From: a virus
Taxonomy: Duplodnaviria; Heunggongvirae; Uroviricota; Caudoviricetes
DNA length: 7,982 nucleotides
Direction: 5' to 3' (one strand)
Virus record (IMG/VR): IMGVR_UViG_2690316184_000004
Span: 1-7,982 of that record
The stretch's first letter is position 1; every line of letters starts with the position of its first letter. The notes beneath the pieces are model-generated. The model searched no databases. It saw nothing but the letters and a program-made list of their open reading frames with translations, and was not told the origin of the DNA. Below are positions 1 through 7,982 of the stretch, one piece after another. A program made the position numbers and the translations under genes.

Positions 1-969
1 ATGAGTGAAGTAACAGATTTAGTTGTTATTGAAAAAGCAAATGCAATGACTGTATTTCAGTCTGCCGACCAGATTGAAGAAATCCTTCAAAGGGTTGAAC
101 GTGAAGTTATGTCCTTTGTGCCTGATATCACAACGGCAAAGGGCAGAAAGGAGATCGCTTCTCTGGCGTATAAAGTTGCGCAGACGAAAACATATCTCGA
201 TGGTCTTGGCAAAGACCTTGTTGCTGAACTGAAGGAAATTCCAAAGCTAATTGATGCTAACCGCAAGACAGTGCGTGATCGCCTTGATGAGCTGAAAGCC
301 AAGGCACGCCAGCCTCTTACTGATTATGAGGAAGAACAGGCGCGGATTAAAGCCGAAGAAGAAGCTAAGGCAGCAGCTGAAGCTCTCGCAAAGCAAATTG
401 AGTCTGACCATGAAATAGCGATTTTGATGGATCGCGAATTTGACCGCCAAAGAGAAGAGGCAAGACTCAAAGCGGAGCAGGAAAAGCGAGAGCATGAAGA
501 ACGCTTAAAAAAAGAAGCTGAAGAGAAAGCCAGAGCTGAAGCCGAAGCAAAGGCAAAAGCCGAAATTGAAGCAGCAGCAAGGCGAGAAGCAGAAGCTAAG
601 GCCGCAGCGGAACGTGCAGAGCGTGAACGCATTGAAGCCGAGCAACGAGCACAGCGCGAAGCAAAAGAGGCAGCAGAACGAGCTGAAAGAGAAAAGCAGG
701 CGGCAATTGAAGCAGAACGCCGAAAAGCACAGGAGGAGGCTGAACGAATCCGGCGCGAGGCTGAAGCAAAAGAGCAAGCCAGAATAGCAGAAGAAAAAAG
801 AATCAAGGACGAAGAAGAGCGTAGAGCAAAGGATAAAGCTCACCGGAAAGAAGTAAATAACAAAATACTTGCTGACCTTATCAAGGTTGGCGCATCAGAA
901 GATGTTGCTAAAAATATCATAACAGCCATCGTAAAAGGCGAAGTATTCGCAACAAAAATAACCTACTAA
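1..969 (+). CDS. Phage hypothetical protein with a ~175-aa E/A/K/R-rich helical (coiled-coil or single-alpha-helix-like) central region between globular N- and C-terminal parts; may be 5'-partial since the ORF begins at window base 1
   Basis: 322-aa ORF ending in tandem stops TAATAA (967-972). Residues ~109-284 are almost entirely E, A, K, R in AEAKA/ERAERE-type repeats. Antisense and alternate-frame ORFs in the same span are low-complexity artefacts. First gene of a co-directional phage operon. Confidence 0.6.
   Translation: MSEVTDLVVIEKANAMTVFQSADQIEEILQRVEREVMSFVPDITTAKGRKEIASLAYKVAQTKTYLDGLGKDLVAELKEIPKLIDANRKTVRDRLDELKAKARQPLTDYEEEQARIKAEEEAKAAAEALAKQIESDHEIAILMDREFDRQREEARLKAEQEKREHEERLKKEAEEKARAEAEAKAKAEIEAAARREAEAKAAAERAERERIEAEQRAQREAKEAAERAEREKQAAIEAERRKAQEEAERIRREAEAKEQARIAEEKRIKDEEERRAKDKAHRKEVNNKILADLIKVGASEDVAKNIITAIVKGEVFATKITY
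325..850 (+). repeat. Purine-rich codon-repeat low-complexity tract (GAA/GCA/AAG/CGA codons) encoding the charged helical region of the first CDS
   Basis: Visibly repetitive gaagc/aaggc/gcagaa units in the sequence. It generates spurious ORFs on both strands (87-302, 247-495, 324-806, 505-843 on -, and 566-787 on +). Confidence 0.5.
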
Positions 970-992
970 TAAACCAACATAAGGAACCACCC

Positions 993-1124
993 ATGATTTA
1001 CGCAATCGCGGGAGGCGCTCGCATGGGTGCCTTCCAACTAAATGAATCTTTACTTGAACGAATCACCCGTAAATTACGTGACGGATGGAAAAGAGTTGAG
1101 GTCTTATTATGCGCAATGAAATAG
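993..1124 (+). CDS. cIII: CIII-like small protein (lambda CIII family, inhibitor of host FtsH protease), 43 aa
   Basis: ATG at 993 preceded by AAGGAA (981-986). Product MIYAIAGGARMGAFQLNESLLERITRKLRDGWKRVEVLLCAMK contains the ESLLERITRKLRDGWKR core that I recall as the conserved amphipathic helix of lambda CIII. Below the 60-aa ORF-track cutoff. Sits where cIII lies in lambda, upstream of kil and the recombination genes. Confidence 0.55.
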   Translation: MIYAIAGGARMGAFQLNESLLERITRKLRDGWKRVEVLLCAMK

Positions 1125-1261
1125 CCATTAATCACCAGATGCTTCGTGCGGCACAAAACAAAGCAGTAATAGCCAGATTTATTGGTGATTCAAAAATGTG
1201 GCTTGAAGCAAATAAAGCGATGAAATCAGCTATCAACCTTCCGTGGTATCGCAGGAAATGA
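1109..1261 (+). CDS. Kil-like small protein (candidate host cell-division inhibitor), 50 aa
   Basis: ATG 1109 with GAGG (1098-1101) upstream; overlaps the cIII-like ORF by 16 nt in another frame. Product MRNEIAINHQMLRAAQNKAVIARFIGDSKMWLEANKAMKSAINLPWYRRK. The IA-FIGD-KM motif resembles my recollection of lambda Kil, and the position after cIII matches lambda order. Assignment from memory only. Confidence 0.4.
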   Translation: MRNEIAINHQMLRAAQNKAVIARFIGDSKMWLEANKAMKSAINLPWYRRK

Positions 1262-1416
1262 GTTTTACAGATAACTGGTCAGACGAAGAATTCATTCGTC
1301 AGATGAAAGAATTAATCGGTAACGAAGGAGATATTCATGTCACTTGCAACCACAGTGAAGGAGAGCAAGTTACAGAGGCGCATGTACACGCAGAAAGCTC
1401 TCTGGTATCGCCATAA
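1258..1416 (+). CDS. Hypothetical small phage protein, 52 aa
   Basis: ATG 1258 overlaps the upstream TGA stop (ATGA, 1258-1261), suggesting translational coupling. The only Shine-Dalgarno-like AGGA is 1 nt from the ATG, so the start is uncertain. Product MSFTDNWSDEEFIRQMKELIGNEGDIHVTCNHSEGEQVTEAHVHAESSLVSP. Confidence 0.3.
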   Translation: MSFTDNWSDEEFIRQMKELIGNEGDIHVTCNHSEGEQVTEAHVHAESSLVSP

Positions 1417-1515
1417 TGGCGACCGCGAAGGAATGCGGGTATGCCTTAATTTGTCCCGAGTCGAAGTATTAAATCAGCGTTATTTCCTTGGGCCATGTCC
1501 ATTCTGAGGTGAATT

Positions 1516-2223
1516 ATGGATTTGAACAAATTCGATGAGCCATTCAGCCCTGAAGATATCGAATGGCGAATACAGCAAAGCGGTAAAACACGCGATGGCA
1601 AAGTGTGGGCTATGGTGCTGGCTTATGTCACGAACCGGGCAATCATGAAACGCCTGGACGATGTTTGCGGCAAAGCAGGATGGCGCAATGAATACCGCGA
1701 TATTCCCAACAACGGCGGCGTTGAATGCGGCATATCAATCAAGATTGATTCCGAATGGGTAACCAAATGGGATGCTGCTGAAAACACGCAGGTAGAAGCC
1801 GTCAAAGGTGGTCGTTCAGGTGCAATGAAGCGTGCTGCCGTTCAGTGGGGAATCGGTCGGTATCTGTATAACCTTGAGGAAGGTTTCGCACAAACATCTC
1901 TCGATAAAAAGCAGGGATGGCACAGGGCAAAACTGAAGGATGGAACAGGATTTTACTGGCTCCCTCCATCGCTGCCTGGCTGGGCAATGCCAGTATCAGA
2001 TAACAAACCATCACCAGAAAATACCAACCAGAAATCTCCATCGGTTGACTGCGAACAAATCCTGAAAGACTTCAGCGATTATGCGTCGACAGAAACTGAC
2101 AAGAAAAAACTCATCGAACGTTATCAGCATGACTGGCAATTAATGGCTGGGAATGAGGATGCGCAGGCTAAATGCGTTCAGGTAATGAACATCAGAGTTA
2201 ACGAACTAAAACAGGCGGCATAA
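1516..2223 (+). CDS. Rad52/Sak-like single-strand annealing protein (DUF1071 / Rad52-22 family phage recombinase)
   Basis: 235-aa ORF; GAGG (1506-1509) 6 nt before ATG 1516. Contains the family pattern as I remember it: KRLDDVCGKAGWRNEY ... GISIKIDSEW ... KGGRSGAMKRAAVQWGIGRYLYN (GW...KRA...GIGRYLY). Immediately followed by ssb. Confidence 0.75.
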   Translation: MDLNKFDEPFSPEDIEWRIQQSGKTRDGKVWAMVLAYVTNRAIMKRLDDVCGKAGWRNEYRDIPNNGGVECGISIKIDSEWVTKWDAAENTQVEAVKGGRSGAMKRAAVQWGIGRYLYNLEEGFAQTSLDKKQGWHRAKLKDGTGFYWLPPSLPGWAMPVSDNKPSPENTNQKSPSVDCEQILKDFSDYASTETDKKKLIERYQHDWQLMAGNEDAQAKCVQVMNIRVNELKQAA

Positions 2224-2697
2224 ATGGCAAGCAGAGGCGTAAATAAGGTGATCATTATTGGTCGCCTTGGGCATGATCCAGAAATCAGATATTCACCATC
2301 AGGAACGGCATTTGCAAACCTTACAGTTGCTACGTCAGAACAATGGCGTGATAAGCAAACTGGAGAGCAAAAGGAGCAGACGGAGTGGCACCGTGTGGTA
2401 ATGAGCGGGAAACTGGCAGAAATTGCCAGCGAATATCTGCGAAAAGGCTCTGAGGTTTATCTTGAAGGCAAATTGCGGACAAGAAAATGGCAGGATCAAA
2501 GCGGACAGGATCGGTTCACTACCGAAGTCATCGTGGGCGTTGGTGGAACCATGCAAATGCTTGGTGGCAAGCAAGGAGGAAATGAACAGTCTTCACCTCA
2601 GCGAAATAACGGTCAGCAACAAAGGCAGCAACCTCAGCAGCAGGGAAATCACAGCGAACCACCTATGAACTTCGACGATTCGGATATTCCGTTCTAG
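2224..2697 (+). CDS. ssb: Single-stranded DNA-binding protein (phage-encoded SSB)
   Basis: 157 aa; ATG directly abuts the upstream TAA. N-terminal OB-fold region is near-identical in pattern to E. coli SSB ([58 protein letters not shown]). Gly/Gln-rich linker and acidic C-terminal tail DDSDIPF (E. coli DDDIPF). Confidence 0.95.
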
Positions 2698-2706
2698 GAG
2701 CTGAAA

Positions 2707-3186
2707 ATGAAAATCTGCTCAAGATGCCATCAACAGAAGGAAGAAAGGGACTTTCAAATCAGAAGAGCATCCAGAGATGGATTAACTGCCGCTTGCCGGG
2801 CTTGCCTGGCTGAATACGACAAAGAGCGCGCGGGATTGCCACATCGAGTATCAGCAAGGAGAGAATATCAATCATCGGAACGCGGCAGAGAACGGTGTAA
2901 CGCAGCCAAAAAGCGGTTCATTCAGAGCAACCCATGGAAAAGAAAAGCCCACATCATTGTGGGTAATTTTTTGCGCGACGGTAAGCTAATCCGACCACCA
3001 CAATGTGAGCGCTGCGGATCAGAATGTAAACCACAGGCGCACCACTGCGATTACAGTAAACCTCTTGAAGTAATGTGGCTATGCAAAGCATGTCATGTTG
3101 AATGGCACAAGCACAACAAGCCAATATATCCAGACGAGGAACCAGTAACCCTCCCCTTCCCTCGTCACGCTATTCACGCAATTTAA
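2707..3186 (+). CDS. HNH endonuclease with N-terminal Cys-rich (zinc-ribbon-like) region
   Basis: 159 aa; GGAG (2697-2700) before ATG 2707. C-terminal CERCGS...AHHCDYSKPLEVMWLCKACHVEWHK fits the HNH CxxC...HH...CxxCH pattern. N-terminal CSRCH ... CRAC gives a second Cys pair set. Confidence 0.75.
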   Translation: MKICSRCHQQKEERDFQIRRASRDGLTAACRACLAEYDKERAGLPHRVSARREYQSSERGRERCNAAKKRFIQSNPWKRKAHIIVGNFLRDGKLIRPPQCERCGSECKPQAHHCDYSKPLEVMWLCKACHVEWHKHNKPIYPDEEPVTLPFPRHAIHAI

Positions 3187-3194
3187 GGACTTAC

Positions 3195-3743
3195 ATGAAT
3201 CACTTAATGGTTGACCTTGAAGCAATGGGCAACGGGCCATATGCGCCAGTTATTTCTATTGGGGCGGTATTCTTTGACCCGAATACCGGAGAAACAGGAG
3301 AAGAGTTCTCGGTAAATATCTCGCTTGAGTCATCAATGCGATATCGGGCGCGTCCTGACGCTTCAACGATTTTATGGTGGATGGAACAGAGTGAAGAAGC
3401 CAGAAAATCGCTAACCAGCAACACTCAAGAGCTTTCAACGGCTCTTTCATGGTTATCTGAATTCATCATAAAGAACGCCAACCACAAACTCGTTCAGGTT
3501 TGGGGGAATGGAGCATCATTTGACTGCGTTATTCTCCGCAACAGTTATTCGCTGACAGGGCAGCCAGTTCCGTGGCAGTGGTGGAATGACCGCGACGTAA
3601 GAACAATCGTCGAACTTGGGAAGGTAATAGGATTCGATCCTAAGCGAGATATGCCATTCAAAGGAACTCGCCACAACGCGCTTGATGATGCCATCCACCA
3701 AGCCAAATACGTTTCAGCGATCTGGAAAAAGTTAGCTAAATAA
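3195..3743 (+). CDS. DEDDh-type 3'-5' exonuclease (DnaQ-like fold; resembles the Rv2179c-like exonuclease family found in prophages)
   Basis: Start chosen at ATG 3195 (AAGGAC at 3185-3190) rather than the overlapping 3102 extension. Motif I MVDLEAMG (D-x-E), motif II GNGASFDCVIL (Asp), motif III GTRHNALDDAIHQAKY (His...Asp). Confidence 0.8.
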   Translation: MNHLMVDLEAMGNGPYAPVISIGAVFFDPNTGETGEEFSVNISLESSMRYRARPDASTILWWMEQSEEARKSLTSNTQELSTALSWLSEFIIKNANHKLVQVWGNGASFDCVILRNSYSLTGQPVPWQWWNDRDVRTIVELGKVIGFDPKRDMPFKGTRHNALDDAIHQAKYVSAIWKKLAK

Positions 3744-3759
3744 TCAACAGGAGAAAACC

Positions 3760-4053
3760 ATGCCAGCGCCTCTGTATGGTGCGGATGACCCGCGCCGCTG
3801 TTCCGGCAATTCCGTATCGGAGGTGCTGGATAAATTCAGGAAAAACTACAACCGGATAATGTCGATACCGCAGGAAACGAAAGAGGAAAAGGAATTTCGC
3901 CACTGTATATGGCTTGCAGAGAAAGAAGAACGAGAGCGAATTTACCAGACATCAATCCGACCATTCCGCAAAGCCACATATACCCACTTCCCTGAAATTG
4001 ACCCGCGCCTGCGTAATTACCGCTCACGCTATGGCGCTATCAGTAATGACTGA
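3760..4053 (+). CDS. abc2: Abc2-like protein (P22 anti-RecBCD protein 2 family) - tentative
   Basis: 97 aa; AGGAG (3749-3753) 6 nt before ATG 3760. N-terminus [13 protein letters not shown] and the size match my recollection of P22-type Abc2 annotations in Salmonella/E. coli prophages. Position directly after the recombination genes is consistent. Not verified by alignment. Confidence 0.5.
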
Positions 4054-4063
4054 GGAATTTACC

Positions 4064-4231
4064 ATGAGAGGACTTGCATACAATCCCGGCATTCTTCCGG
4101 CAGAAATGATTATTCGCCAACGCGTAAAGCCAATGCCATCGAGAGAGGAATTGCTTAAGAGAAATTCTTTTCCTTCAGTGAATCAAAACAAATATCTGAA
4201 TGCGATGTGGCGCAAAGGAGGCAACCAGTGA
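4064..4231 (+). CDS. Hypothetical small phage protein, 55 aa
   Basis: ATG 4064 with GAGGAA (4052-4057) upstream; in frame with the track's 3914-4231 ORF but avoids overlap with the upstream gene. Stop TGA overlaps the next GTG start (GTGA, 4228-4231). Product [55 protein letters not shown]. Confidence 0.4.
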
Positions 4232-4671
4232 GCAAGATTGATTATCAAAAGCTTCGTGAAATCGCTGAAAAAACAAAAATTGCTGGTGAAGCACCTGTAA
4301 TGCCTTTCGATCAGCGAATTAATGCGCTTAACGATTTTATGAAGCACTTTTCGCCAGATATCGCGCTGGCATTGTTGGATGAACGGGAAAGAAACCTGCA
4401 ATACATCAAAAGCCGCGATCAGGAGAACGAGGATATTGCGCTAACGGTAGGGAAGCTGCGTGTTGAGCTGGAAGCAGAAAAACAGCGGGCAAAAGTTCTA
4501 TTTATGGAAAATGCTCGGCTTAAGTCAGGCGTAGCCGGTCTGATACACCTCGGTATTCGATATGCAGATGTTGAGGTCATGAGAATTGCTGGAGATGCCC
4601 AGCTTTCTACCCCATGCACTGACAGCATCATAAACAGCATTGCAACAGGCATTCGCATCAAAGGAGAGTGA
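4228..4671 (+). CDS. Ead/Ea22-like protein (N-terminal Ead/Ea22 domain only)
   Basis: Likely GTG start at 4228 with strong AAAGGAGG (4214-4221) 6 nt upstream; the track start at 4207 is also a GTG. N-terminus [15 protein letters not shown]...G matches the (I)DYQALRExAEKA opening typical of Ead/Ea22-like prophage proteins. 147 aa. Confidence 0.6.
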
Positions 4672-4672
4672 G

Positions 4673-4864
4673 ATGAACGGACAAATCTCAATTGTTCGAC
4701 CGGGAGCATGTGACGATCGCGAGATACGAATGATTATTCGTCTGTCGATGGGGAAAACAATAACGGCTCTCATTACTCCAGAAAATCTCGCATTAGCATT
4801 AACCGGAAAGTCAGACCTGCCAGTAGAGCTAAAGCTGCGAAATGTTGAGATTAAGGTGAAATAG
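4673..4864 (+). CDS. Hypothetical small phage protein, 63 aa
   Basis: ATG 4673 with GGAG (4663-4666) 6 nt upstream, 1 nt after the upstream TGA. Product MNGQISIVRPGACDDREIRMIIRLSMGKTITALITPENLALALTGKSDLPVELKLRNVEIKVK. No family recognised. Confidence 0.45.
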   Translation: MNGQISIVRPGACDDREIRMIIRLSMGKTITALITPENLALALTGKSDLPVELKLRNVEIKVK

Positions 4865-4866
4865 CT

Positions 4867-5430
4867 ATGACCACTATAACCAATAAGAAACAGTATCCCA
4901 GCGAGCAATATCTTAATGAGCTGATCACCAACATAGAGTTTGCTGCAAGGGCACCAGTTGAAGTCGTGAGAGCGATGGCAGCAGAGCTACAGAAGCGGCG
5001 CGAAGCTGATAGTGCCGAACCTGCAAGTAATCATGAAGAGTTGCCGCTTGATTATCTCCAAGGTCAAAAAGATGGTCTTGAATGGGCTGCGCAGCTTGCA
5101 GAAGCAAATCACCCACAAACTGGCGACTGGCTTTACGATGACCCGCTGGAGCTGGCTAAAGCTATCAGAAAAGGTCCTGACATGCCCGAATTCGATGGAC
5201 CAACTCCGGTAACTCCGGATGGTTGGATAAGCTGTAGTGAGCAAATGCCTGATGATGGTCAGCACGTAATTATTTTATGTGATGGTGCATTCGTTCTTTA
5301 TGCACAATATCGAGACGGTGAGTTTTTTGATGTTGTCCGCAATGGTGAGGAGTTCTTCGAAACGCAGAGCCGCAATGTAACCGACTGGATGCCTCTACCA
5401 GAACCGCCGCAGGAGGTTAACCGTGGCTAA
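4867..5430 (+). CDS. DUF551-domain phage protein (domain usually found at the C-terminus of Ead/Ea22-like proteins)
   Basis: 187 aa; ATG 4867 two nt after upstream TAG; AAGGTGA (4853-4859) upstream. C-terminal WISCSEQMPDDGQHVIIL...TDWMPLPEPP fits the DUF551 signature (W-I-x-V/C-x-E/D-x-L/M-P ... W-M-P-L-P-E-P-P) as I recall it. Confidence 0.65.
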   Translation: MTTITNKKQYPSEQYLNELITNIEFAARAPVEVVRAMAAELQKRREADSAEPASNHEELPLDYLQGQKDGLEWAAQLAEANHPQTGDWLYDDPLELAKAIRKGPDMPEFDGPTPVTPDGWISCSEQMPDDGQHVIILCDGAFVLYAQYRDGEFFDVVRNGEEFFETQSRNVTDWMPLPEPPQEVNRG

Positions 5431-5707
5431 CCTTCAACTGGTAGTTAACGGTGAATATTTCGACCAGATGAAGTCAGGCGAGAAAACGGAAGAGTATCGC
5501 CTGTGTAATGACTACTGGAATAAGCGAATTATGTTCCGGGAGTATGACCGCCTGATTATCACAAAGGGATATCCGAAGCGCGACGATTCCAGCCGCAGAA
5601 TTGATGTTCCGTATGACGGATATGAAATCAAGACAATCACACATCCGCACTTCGGCGATAAACCGGTAAAGGTATACGCGATAAAGGTGAATATCGGCAA
5701 TGAATAA
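5423..5707 (+). CDS. Hypothetical phage protein, possibly ASCH/PUA-like fold
   Basis: GTG 5423 with AGGAGG (5411-5416) 6 nt upstream; overlaps the upstream stop by 8 nt. 94 aa. Pattern VVNGEYFDQMKSGEKTEEYR ... LIITKGY ... VKVYAIKV loosely resembles ASCH-domain beta-barrel proteins (e.g. YqfB-like). Weak assignment. Confidence 0.5.
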   Translation: MANLQLVVNGEYFDQMKSGEKTEEYRLCNDYWNKRIMFREYDRLIITKGYPKRDDSSRRIDVPYDGYEIKTITHPHFGDKPVKVYAIKVNIGNE

Positions 5708-5742
5708 CAATCCTCGCACTCGCGGTGATTTCTTTTATCTGA

Positions 5743-5766
5743 ACTCGCTACGGCGAGTTTTGTTTT
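5743..5766 (+). terminator. Intrinsic terminator-like hairpin (internal operon terminator or attenuator)
   Basis: 6-bp perfect stem ACTCGC (5743-5748) / GCGAGT (5753-5758), 4-nt loop TACG, followed by TTTTGTTTT. Lies in the 72-nt gap between CDS 5423-5707 and CDS 5780-5947. Confidence 0.4.
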
Positions 5767-5779
5767 ATGGAGATGATAA

Positions 5780-5947
5780 ATGCACTTCCGAGTCACAGGT
5801 GAATGGAATGGAGAACCATTCAACAGGGTTATCGAAGCAGAGGACATCAACGACTGCTATGCCCACTGGATGCTGTGGGCGCAGATAGCGCATGCAGACG
5901 TAACCAATATTCGAATTGAAGAACTGAAAGAACACCAAGCCGCCTGA
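5780..5947 (+). CDS. Hypothetical small phage protein, 55 aa
   Basis: ATG 5780 with GGAG (5769-5772) 7 nt upstream; stop TGA sits in the loop of the downstream terminator. Product MHFRVTGEWNGEPFNRVIEAEDINDCYAHWMLWAQIAHADVTNIRIEELKEHQAA. Preferred over the overlapping track ORF 5700-5888. Confidence 0.4.
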   Translation: MHFRVTGEWNGEPFNRVIEAEDINDCYAHWMLWAQIAHADVTNIRIEELKEHQAA

Positions 5948-5962
5948 TGGCGGTTTTTTATT
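5939..5962 (+). terminator. Rho-independent terminator
   Basis: GC-rich stem CCGCC (5940-5944) / GGCGG (5949-5953) with 4-nt loop TGAT, followed by T-run TTTTTTATT (5954-5962). Confidence 0.6.
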
Positions 5963-6004
5963 ACCTGATTTGCAGGTTCGATTCCCTATTCGGAGATAGC
6001 ACTC

Positions 6005-6205
6005 ATGCAACACGAACTACAACCTGATTCACTGGTTGATTTGAAATTCATCATGGCCGATACTGGCTTTGGTAAAACCTTCATCTATGACCGGATTAAG
6101 TCCGGCGACCTGCCAAAAGCCAAAGTTATCCACGGTCGAGCAAGATGGTTATATCGTGACCATTGTGAATTCAAAAATAAGCTCTTAAGCCGCGCCAATG
6201 GGTAA
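6005..6205 (+). CDS. AlpA/Xis-like prophage DNA-binding protein (excisionase or transcriptional regulator family)
   Basis: 66 aa; GGAGA (5991-5995) upstream of ATG 6005. FIMADTGFGKTFIYDRIKSGDLPKAKVIHGRARWLYRDHCEF fits the AlpA-family pattern (helix-turn-helix, tG.s.stIY..i..G.FP, conserved Trp). Last gene of the phage operon, where xis sits in lambdoid phages. Confidence 0.7.
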   Translation: MQHELQPDSLVDLKFIMADTGFGKTFIYDRIKSGDLPKAKVIHGRARWLYRDHCEFKNKLLSRANG

Positions 6206-6254: not shown

Positions 6255-6288
6255 TCCCCTGCTGCTTCAAGTAGATGTCTGCAGGGGA
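6255..6288. repeat. 8-bp inverted repeat TCCCCTGC / GCAGGGGA with 18-nt spacer
   Basis: TCCCCTGC (6255-6262) is the exact reverse complement of GCAGGGGA (6281-6288). No U-tract follows on either strand. Confidence 0.35.
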
Positions 6289-6681
6289 CACCAGATACCC
6301 TTCAAACGAAATCTACCTTCACCCCGTAAAAGATGGGTTTGGCAGCACACTTGCCTTATATCTACTCATTTTTACTGCAACAGGTTGAAATCTCAGCACT
6401 GTCAGAAAGCGCTGATGACTAAACAGCCCTGAGCCGGGCGATGTAACCATCACACAGAATCCTGATAGCGAAATATGGCGTGACTCGATACTTCACTCCG
6501 CAATGCATTCCTTGATGAATTCGCAGGACCGTGATACACGGGACAGGTCACTGAATGACGACAATGTCCTGGAAATCAGCGAACCGCGCATCTGAAGTAC
6601 ATTTGAGCGACTGTACCAGAACATGAATGAGGCGTTTGGATTAGGCGATTATTAGCAGGGCTAAGCATTTTACTATTATTA

Positions 6682-6725
6682 TTTTCCGGTTGAGGGATAT
6701 AGAGCTATCGACAACAACCGGAAAA
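6682..6725. repeat. 11-bp perfect inverted repeat TTTTCCGGTTG / CAACCGGAAAA with 22-nt spacer, 10 bp from the transporter stop codon
   Basis: TTTTCCGGTTG (6682-6692) and CAACCGGAAAA (6715-6725) are exact reverse complements. The T/A runs are part of the stem, not a 3' U-tract, so it is not a canonical intrinsic terminator on either strand. Confidence 0.4.
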
Positions 6726-6734
6726 AGTTTACGT

Positions 6735-7982
6735 CTATATTGCTGAAGGTACAGGCGTTTCCATAACTATTTGCTCGCGTTTTTTACTCAAGAAGAAAAT
6801 GCCAAATAGCAACATCAGGCAGACAATACCCGAAATTGCGAAGAAAACTGTCTGGTAGCCTGCGTGGTCAAAGAGTATCCCAGTCGGCGTTGAAAGCAGC
6901 ACAATCCCAAGCGAACTGGCAATTTGAAAACCAATCAGAAAGATCGTCGACGACAGGCGCTTATCAAAGTTTGCCACGCTGTATTTGAAGACGGATATGA
7001 CACAAAGTGGAACCTCAATGGCATGTAACAACTTCACTAATGAAATAATCCAGGGGTTAACGAACAGCGCGCAGGAAAGGATACGCAACGCCATAATCAC
7101 AACTCCGATAAGTAATGCATTTTTTGGCCCTACCCGATTCACAAAGAAAGGAATAATCGCCATGCACAGCGCTTCGAGTACCACCTGGAATGAGTTGAGA
7201 TAACCATACAGGCGCGTTCCTACATCGTGTGATTCGAATAAACCTGCATAAAAGACAGGAAAAAGTTGTTGATCAAAAATGTTATAGAAAGACCACGTCC
7301 CCACAATAAATATGACGAAAACCCAGAAGTTTCGATCCTTGAAAACTGCGATAAAATCCTCTTTTTTTACCCCTCCCGCATCTGCCGCTACGCACTGGTG
7401 ATCCTTATCTTTAAAACGCATGTTGATCATCATAAATACAGCGCCAAATAGCGAGACCAACCAGAAGTTGATATGGGGACTGATACTAAAAAATATGCCG
7501 GCAAAGAACGCGCCAATAGCATAGCCAAAAGATCCCCAGGCGCGCGCTGTTCCATATTCGAAATGAAAATTTCGCGCCATTTTTTCGGTGAAGCTATCAA
7601 GCAAACCGCATCCCGCCAGATACCCCAAGCCAAAAAATAGCGCCCCCGGAATTAGACCTACAGAAAAATTGCTTTGCAGTAACGGTTCATAAACGTAAAT
7701 CATAAACGGTCCGGTCAAGACCAGGATGAAACTCATACACCAGATGAGCGGTTTCTTCAGACCGAGTTTATCCTGAACGATGCCGTAGAACATCATAAAT
7801 AGAATGCTGGTAAACTGGTTGACCGAATAAAGTGTACCTAATTCCGTCCCTGTCAACCCTAGATGTCCTTTCAGCCAAATAGCGTATAACGACCACCACA
7901 GCGACCAGGAAATAAAAAAGAGAAATGAGTAACTGGATGCAAAACGATAGTACGCATTTCTGAATGGAATATTCAGTGCCAT
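6735..7982 (-). CDS. MFS transporter of the LacY-like oligosaccharide:H+ symporter family (substrate unknown)
   Basis: 415-aa ORF on the - strand with ATG at the very window edge (7980-7982), stop TAG at 6735-6737. Highly hydrophobic with about 12 predicted TM segments. N-terminal NAYYRFASSYSFLFFISWSLWWSLYAIWL parallels LacY [28 protein letters not shown]. The true start may lie beyond the window. Confidence 0.85.
   Translation of the reverse strand: MALNIPFRNAYYRFASSYSFLFFISWSLWWSLYAIWLKGHLGLTGTELGTLYSVNQFTSILFMMFYGIVQDKLGLKKPLIWCMSFILVLTGPFMIYVYEPLLQSNFSVGLIPGALFFGLGYLAGCGLLDSFTEKMARNFHFEYGTARAWGSFGYAIGAFFAGIFFSISPHINFWLVSLFGAVFMMINMRFKDKDHQCVAADAGGVKKEDFIAVFKDRNFWVFVIFIVGTWSFYNIFDQQLFPVFYAGLFESHDVGTRLYGYLNSFQVVLEALCMAIIPFFVNRVGPKNALLIGVVIMALRILSCALFVNPWIISLVKLLHAIEVPLCVISVFKYSVANFDKRLSSTIFLIGFQIASSLGIVLLSTPTGILFDHAGYQTVFFAISGIVCLMLLFGIFFLSKKREQIVMETPVPSAI

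Follow-up and report, generated by a model that had tools for sequence, protein, structure and literature searches.

The ORF at positions 3760 to 4053 of the DNA studied here (the window, a single stretch of 7,982 nucleotides) codes for a protein that, judging by its sequence, is an orthologue of the phage P22 protein Abc2 and is under purifying selection. This protein is most probably functional (a probability of about 0.85 was assigned to this reading as a whole), in which case resection by a Chi-blind RecBCD would feed the SSB and the Rad52-like protein encoded in the same module, and a partner of any annealing family would serve equally. The pairing of Abc2 with a Rad52-like protein is genuine, common and already published as an arrangement in coliphages and Salmonella phages.

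The abc2 gene and its conservation

The abc2 gene (for anti-RecBCD protein 2) runs from ATG to TGA on the + strand (3760..4053, 97 codons, 97 aa) and is preceded by a Shine-Dalgarno motif, read from the sequence, six bases 5' of the ATG (AGGAG, 3749..3753, + strand). The stop of the upstream exonuclease gene is at 3743, 16 nt before abc2, and the next gene begins at 4064, 10 nt after the abc2 stop. The length of the ORF is no proof of a gene on its own, because many spurious ORFs of about 97 codons are present in the window, including two antisense ORFs that overlap the abc2 region; it is homology, together with purifying selection, that identifies 3760..4053 as a real gene.

The initial annotation had proposed this 97-aa ORF as an Abc2-like candidate, to be checked by pairwise alignment with P22 Abc2. 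The alignment (against AF217253.1) settled the assignment decisively, with 91.8% identity (89 of 97 residues), 97/97 residues aligned and E = 6e-55. The protein also covers the whole of the Pfam profile PF11043 (Anti-RecBCD_p2; positions 1-97 of 97, 209.3 bits, with a curated cut-off of 25), and matches PHROG 656 ('abc2 anti-RecBCD', E = 1.7e-54) and the Abc2 chain in two cryo-EM structures of the RecBCD-Abc2 complex, 8B1T and 8B1U (PDB 8b1t_A, E = 2e-57). Identical copies of the gene are already named 'phage anti-RecBCD protein' by PGAP. The NCBIfam library gave no match for the five module proteins scanned, Abc2 included, which for Abc2 is explained by the coverage of the library.

Eight substitutions distinguish the window protein from P22 Abc2: D31N, L32R, L36I, A65S, K76H, I78P, D86N and N97D. 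Fifteen residues of Abc2 form hydrogen bonds or salt bridges with RecC in the cryo-EM work of Wilkinson 2022 (A3, R13, C14, S15, G16, Y30, I33, M34, L36, E39, K41, K44, E45, R47 and H48), and alignment with P22 shows that 14 of the 15 are unchanged in the window protein. The only difference is L36I, at a position that contacts RecC through its backbone carbonyl, and all the side chains that contact RecC are therefore kept. The same work places Pro68 in the active site of PpiB, a prolyl isomerase of the host; this proline is present in the window Abc2 and is invariant across seven aligned Abc2 sequences, down to 36% identity. At the nucleotide level, window and P22 abc2 are separated by 17 synonymous and 10 non-synonymous differences (dN/dS 0.14), the pooled pN/pS of 65 distinct abc2 alleles from IMG/VR is 0.16, and none of 80 related IMG/VR copies contains an internal stop. 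The consequence is mainly one of correct annotation, the label for 3760..4053 being abc2 (phage anti-RecBCD protein 2).

The prophage end and its recombination module

In agreement with the prophage context initially claimed, the window comes from a sucrose-positive E. coli and contains the xis-side end of an Sf6/P22-like prophage. From position 1 to 6205 all genes are on the + strand and tightly packed, and their order (cIII, kil, small ORFs and annealing protein, later abc2, and finally xis and att) is as in P22, Sf6 and HK75. Identity to Sf6 (100%) stops at 6293, within an attachment core, CTGCAGGGGACACCA (6279..6293), that exactly matches the initial 15 nt of the attP core of Sf6 and constitutes the prophage/chromosome junction. 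A junction region (6294..6734) separates it from the adjoining cscB gene of the csc sucrose locus (6735..7982, - strand). Neither an integrase gene nor a tRNA was found in the window, because attP of Sf6-type phages is located between the xis and int genes, so that int is left at the other prophage end by argW; such an int next to argW is seen in strain KD602.

The first gene (1..969, +) codes for a homologue of the Sf6 gene 33 product (322 aa). The protein is of a charged, coiled-coil type with a high content of E, A, K and R; no Pfam match and only PHROGs of unknown function were found for it, and the name given to it by PGAP in several genomes, 'cell envelope biogenesis protein TolA', is probably a mislabel due to low complexity. 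It is followed by cIII (993..1124, +), kil (1109..1261, +) and, directly 5' of the annealing-protein gene, a gene for a small acidic protein of 52 aa (1258..1416, +; PHROG 2123), homologous to Sf6 gene 30 and HK75 Gp33. A relationship of this last ORF to P22 Arf was considered and not accepted, because nothing beyond a 7-residue motif, SDEEFI, is common to the two (E = 0.014 for a single comparison). The coding status of a small overlapping ORF (1337..1507, +, 56 aa; PHROG 1723) is uncertain; its product is 100% identical to that of Sf6 gene 29, and it carries no PGAP annotation in ISHS7.

The recombination module proper begins with a single-strand annealing protein of 235 aa (1516..2223, +) that has a Rad52/Rad22 (Sak) N-domain (PF04098, E = 4.9e-26, residues 4-136). 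Next come a phage SSB of 157 aa (2224..2697, +; PF00436, E = 1.7e-38) with an acidic DDSDIPF tail and 98.7% identity to Sf6 gp27, an HNH-like endonuclease of 159 aa (2707..3186, +; PHROG 2340 'endonuclease', E = 1.8e-47) that is 97.5% identical to Sf6 gp26, and a DnaQ/RNase T-like DEDDh 3'-5' exonuclease of 182 aa (3195..3743, +; PF16473, Rv2179c-like DEDD, E = 5.5e-72) that is 98.9% identical to the mEp235 exonuclease. The initial reading of the neighbours as a Rad52-like recombinase, not Erf, and a DEDDh exonuclease thus holds, with the SSB as a further member; the HNH-like gene had not been mentioned there. Pfam gave no match for the HNH-like protein or for the small ORFs. The start of the exonuclease gene was set at 3195, not 3102, since the PF16473 match begins at residue 33 of the longer ORF and the equivalent start was chosen by PGAP; its translation shows the motifs DLE, SFD and H-x4-D. 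Between the annealing-protein gene and abc2 no promoter-like site was found, and the single terminator-like hairpin in this interval, a weak one inside the HNH-like gene (2947-2964), is within chance expectation.

Both nuclease genes (2707..3743) belong to one module. According to Zheng 2025, who points to DnaQ-like and HNH nucleases in such modules, 3'-5' exonucleases of this kind usually inhibit recombination, HNH genes may be mobile, and two Rec-module genes of the same function occur in only three of 314 phages. The combination of both nucleases was found in 3 of 80 IMG/VR loci (L018, L028 and L084) and also, by annotation, in phage CurroJimenez_Bas106. The 3' end of the HNH-like gene (3109..3183) encodes ...PVTLPFPRHAIHAI, and the same 14 residues follow the DDDIPF tail in the longer SSB of HK75, so that the HNH-like gene looks like an insertion behind ssb in which the old 3' end was kept, and is probably mobile. 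It is present in 7 of the 26 IMG/VR loci that carry a Rad52-like gene.

Downstream of abc2 lie a DUF2737 gene (4064..4231, +, 55 aa; PF10930, E = 9e-32), which occupies this place in 79 of 80 IMG/VR loci, and an Ead/Ea22-like ORF with a GTG start (4207..4671, +, 154 aa) that overlaps its end. The latter is short for its family and its KD602 counterpart is a PGAP pseudogene missing the N-terminus; it may be a truncated gene. It is followed by DUF551 and ASCH-like genes and by the last gene of the early-left operon, which codes for a TorI/HkaC-like excisionase of 66 aa (6005..6205, +), homologous to Sf6 gene 18 and with counterparts named 'TorI' by PGAP in ISHS7 and KD602. Two terminator-like hairpins with T-rich tails (5741..5760 and 5937..5956, both +) lie between the ASCH-like gene and xis, and may limit early-left read-through into xis. 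An Oad2-like anti-OLD gene, as HK75 gp27 and Sf6 gene 22, was not found in the window.

P22 Abc2 and the window protein are alike in their 97 aa and in the position of their genes, in the early-left operon, 3' of the annealing-protein gene and 5' of the DUF2737/ORF56 gene. The P22 context, however, is arf-erf-abc1-abc2, and in the window Arf, the Erf N-domain and Abc1 are missing and the Rad52-like protein, the SSB, the HNH-like gene and the DEDDh exonuclease are found instead. A tblastn search of the window (E <= 1) gave no match to P22 Abc1, only an opposite-strand match at chance level to Arf (E = 0.40), and a match to P22 Erf through the C-terminal tail only. P22-type Abc1 is likewise absent from all 80 related IMG/VR loci. 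The same gene order is found in Sf6 (NC_005344), whose genes 30 to 25 (g30/g29, g28 for the Rad52-like protein, g27 for the SSB, the HNH-like g26 and g25, abc2) code for proteins with 95-100% identity to those of the window, and whose xis gene and attP core are also those of the window, its lineage integrating at argW. It differs in lacking the DEDDh exonuclease between gene 26 and abc2, in having other genes 3' of abc2 and in an Abc2 of 98 aa with one inserted residue.

The lambda-like siphoviruses mEp235, mEpX2 and HK75 (of the 'HK75'/'ES18' types of Zheng 2025) have other integrases. Phages mEp235 and mEpX2 share with the window the series Rad52/22, SSB, exonuclease, Abc2 and DUF2737, and HK75 has Gp33, a 97.9%-identical Rad52-like protein called 'Erf', an SSB and a 95.9%-identical Abc2; in none of the three do the HNH-like gene and the exonuclease occur together, as they do in the window. 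In Salmonella phage ST104 a 91.5%-identical Sak-like protein occurs together with Abc1 and Abc2, and in ES18 a Sak/Rad52-like protein stands beside Abc2. A distant siphovirus carries Erf and an SSB along with an 80%-identical exonuclease and a 34%-identical Abc2. The abc2 gene of KD602 is 100% identical to that of the window, but the prophage of this strain has no HNH-like gene and borders on another island.

Annealing partners of Abc2

The IMG/VR sample comprised 80 loci with an Abc2 at least 97% identical to that of the window; 77 were informative and three had too little upstream DNA. Erf with an HK97-gp40-type SSB was found 5' of abc2 in 46 loci. A Rad52-like protein with SSB occupies this position in 26 of the 77 informative loci, with the Rad52/Sak-type protein, a bacterial-type SSB and Abc2 encoded in one co-directional block: 14 have no nuclease, five have the exonuclease, four the HNH-like gene and three both nucleases, which is the window arrangement. 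Three further loci have an HK620-type Sak4 with its own SSB, and a truncated Erf remnant remains in two. Wherever the Erf or Rad52-like gene is intact (72 loci), abc2 follows downstream within about 2.3 kb. The two loci with the remnant (L016 and L072) keep abc2 and the HK97-type SSB, with only the C-terminal part of Erf left about 600-700 bp upstream (an 84-aa ORF in L072); they are decaying modules in which abc2 has outlived the recombinase.

In bacterial genomes, abc2 was found in 1,101 of 5,426 complete E. coli genomes, and in 100 complete E. coli genomes at least 80% of the 2.5 kb that extend from the annealing-protein gene to abc2 are covered. The prophage belongs to a large class, present in about 20% of complete E. 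coli genomes, that would rewire RecBCD rather than block it. Published catalogues contain the same combinations. The available part of Table S6 of Bobay 2013 lists 'Sak + Abc2' in at least 14, 'ERF + Abc2' in at least 17 and 'Sak4 + Abc2' in three phages or prophages, with Sf6 and a prophage of E. coli W among the entries. Sak4, SSB and Abc2 were described together in HK620 (Hutinet 2018), and Zheng 2025, who sorted 314 lambdoid genomes into 13 functional types of Rec module, counted in Table 1 27 phages with anti-RecBCD, SSB and SAP and 25 with anti-RecBCD, SSB, nuclease and SAP.

The occurrence of nearly identical Abc2 proteins (at least 97%) next to Erf, Rad52-like and RecA-like Sak4 proteins speaks against the recognition of one particular recombinase by Abc2, and fits the report of Murphy 2000 that Abc2 and lambda Bet together promote Chi-independent recombination. 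Abc2 is most probably independent of the neighbouring annealing family, and its occurrence beside a Rad52-like protein in place of Erf a matter of routine mosaic variation. The module mixing that had been suggested for this locus is accordingly real in that a Rad52-like domain stands beside Abc2; it is not new, being known from Sf6, HK75, mEp235, ST104 and ES18, and the swap concerns the N-domain only. The finding of Abc2 beside three structurally different annealing proteins also bears on the proposed 'Abc2 loads Erf' model.

The restriction of the swap to the N-domain comes from the annealing protein itself. It is 97.9% identical to Sf6 gp28 and HK75 gp32 and 91.5% identical to ST104 ORF13, and it has no match to the Erf annealing domain PF04404; its residues 157-235 (1984..2220, a tail of about 70-79 aa), by contrast, align with residues 134-205 of P22 Erf at 65% identity, with 78% identity over 171 nt at the DNA level. 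As the Erf domain of P22 spans residues 5-146, the homologous tail lies largely beyond it. By these alignments the annealing protein is a chimera with a mosaic breakpoint inside its gene, the family having been exchanged only in the N-terminal annealing domain, and the Erf-like C-terminal tail explains why databases label the protein 'Erf-like'.

The Erf-like tail was detected in 124 phage records, compared with 225 records that carry Abc2. A strict association between tail and Abc2 was rejected, since Sak4 modules have the same Abc2 and no tail. Erwinia phage EhrS_49, listed by Zheng 2025 as having no anti-RecBCD gene, has a 39%-identical Erf-like tail. The HK97-type Erf tail is always found beside an HK97-type SSB in the IMG/VR loci, and the tail may track the SSB type instead. 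It is conceivable, though rather unlikely, that the stretch of about 65 residues common to P22 Erf and the Rad52-like protein is a portable docking element for the SSB tail or for Abc2-RecBCD. Such an element would account for the ability of a single Abc2 allele to serve different annealing domains and for the site at which ssDNA is handed over, and the breakpoint in the annealing-protein gene would then mark a functional interface.

Proposed RecBCD modification and alternative roles of Abc2

The binding site of P22 Abc2 on RecC is close to the Chi-recognition latch and to the proposed ssDNA exit channel; Abc2 leaves the helicase and nuclease of RecBCD active and abolishes both the Chi response and RecBCD-dependent host recombination (Wilkinson 2022). 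The structure and the biochemistry were obtained with RecBCD from E. coli, the host species of the window prophage. The Pfam scan of the module gave no 5'-3' exonuclease of the kind represented by lambda Exo or RecE, so that a resection activity of the host would be needed. From the conserved contact residues, the use of E. coli RecBCD in the published work and the lack of an Exo/RecE-type exonuclease, it can be inferred that in its E. coli host the window Abc2 would make RecBCD a resection engine blind to Chi, and that the resulting ssDNA would be used by the phage SSB and the Rad52-like protein.

The proposed sequence of events would start after infection or induction, when Abc2 would be made from the N-antiterminated early-left (PL) operon. 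Its first 50 residues or so would bind the Chi-recognition domains of host RecC, and Pro68 would engage host PpiB. The RecBCD-Abc2 complex would then go on unwinding and degrading DNA with no response to Chi and no feeding of RecA, acting as a resection engine that gives 3' single strands, and the phage SSB and Rad52-like protein would use these strands to circularise the terminally redundant genome and drive recombination-dependent replication. Some points count against this mechanism. The module lacks Abc1 and Arf, both of which P22 requires for full activity, and the prophage, of which the window covers only one end, may not be inducible. Co-expression of HK620 abc2 with Sak4 also gave no rise in oligonucleotide recombineering (Hutinet 2018), in an assay that needs no resection.

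A different role for Abc2 would be that of a shield comparable to Gam, protecting linear or rolling-circle DNA from RecBCD and from spacer acquisition with no functional link to the annealing protein. This is how the names used in databases ('anti-RecBCD', 'inhibitor of RecBCD nuclease') present the protein, and Bobay 2013 places Gam and Abc2 in one 'inhibitor' class, both being associated with Chi avoidance. The window also lacks Chi sites on both strands, but only about 0.3 are expected in 6.3 kb, which makes this count uninformative. Lambda Gam and T7 gp5.9 do resemble Abc2 in targeting RecBCD, in belonging to phage recombination modules and in their association with Chi avoidance; they are, however, DNA mimics of unrelated folds that block the DNA-binding site and abolish all RecBCD activities, whereas Abc2 binds a surface of RecC and leaves the helicase and the nuclease active. 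A RecBCD-Abc2 complex that keeps its helicase, and its exonuclease in vivo according to the P22 work, would be a poor shield. Moreover, an inhibitor without a recombinase occurs in none of the 275 phages of Bobay 2013, and the proximity of abc2 to an intact Erf or Rad52-like gene (72 of 72 loci) speaks for a link between them, so that a role mainly as a shield is improbable. The same evidence bears on the RecBCD counter-defence attributed to this prophage by the initial annotation: the Abc2 orthologue is there, but inhibition was an overstatement, as P22 Abc2 leaves RecBCD active and Chi-blind, a hijack and not a block.

It is also improbable that abc2 is an inert passenger of a decaying prophage, neither expressed nor useful and intact by chance. 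Decay is apparent in relatives: the KD602 prophage has internal deletions, its helicase gene being truncated and joined to the terminase region and its ead gene truncated as well, and the two loci mentioned above (of 80) have lost most of the Erf gene and yet keep abc2; in the window, moreover, only the end of the prophage is visible. Against this, the ORF, its ribosome-binding site and all the flanking genes of the module are intact, purifying selection acts across the Abc2 family, and the same module is carried by the plaque-forming phages Sf6, HK75, mEp235, N7 and CurroJimenez. That the product of 3760..4053 is an unrelated hypothetical protein or a chance ORF can be discarded, being refuted by the full-length alignments to P22 Abc2, PF11043, PDB 8b1t and PHROG 656 (E values from 1e-54 to 1e-63).

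The small acidic protein encoded at 1258..1416 is 98% identical to Sf6 g30 and 90% identical to HK75 Gp33, and a 2026 preprint reported HK75 Gp33 to be sufficient by itself to trigger the abortive-infection nuclease P2 OLD and proposed it as a new RecBCD manipulator. Because the module carries this close homologue, prophages of the window type are probably visible to immune systems that guard RecBCD. The protein called 'Erf' at the HK75 locus in the same preprint is the Rad52-like protein that is 97.9% identical to the one encoded in the window.
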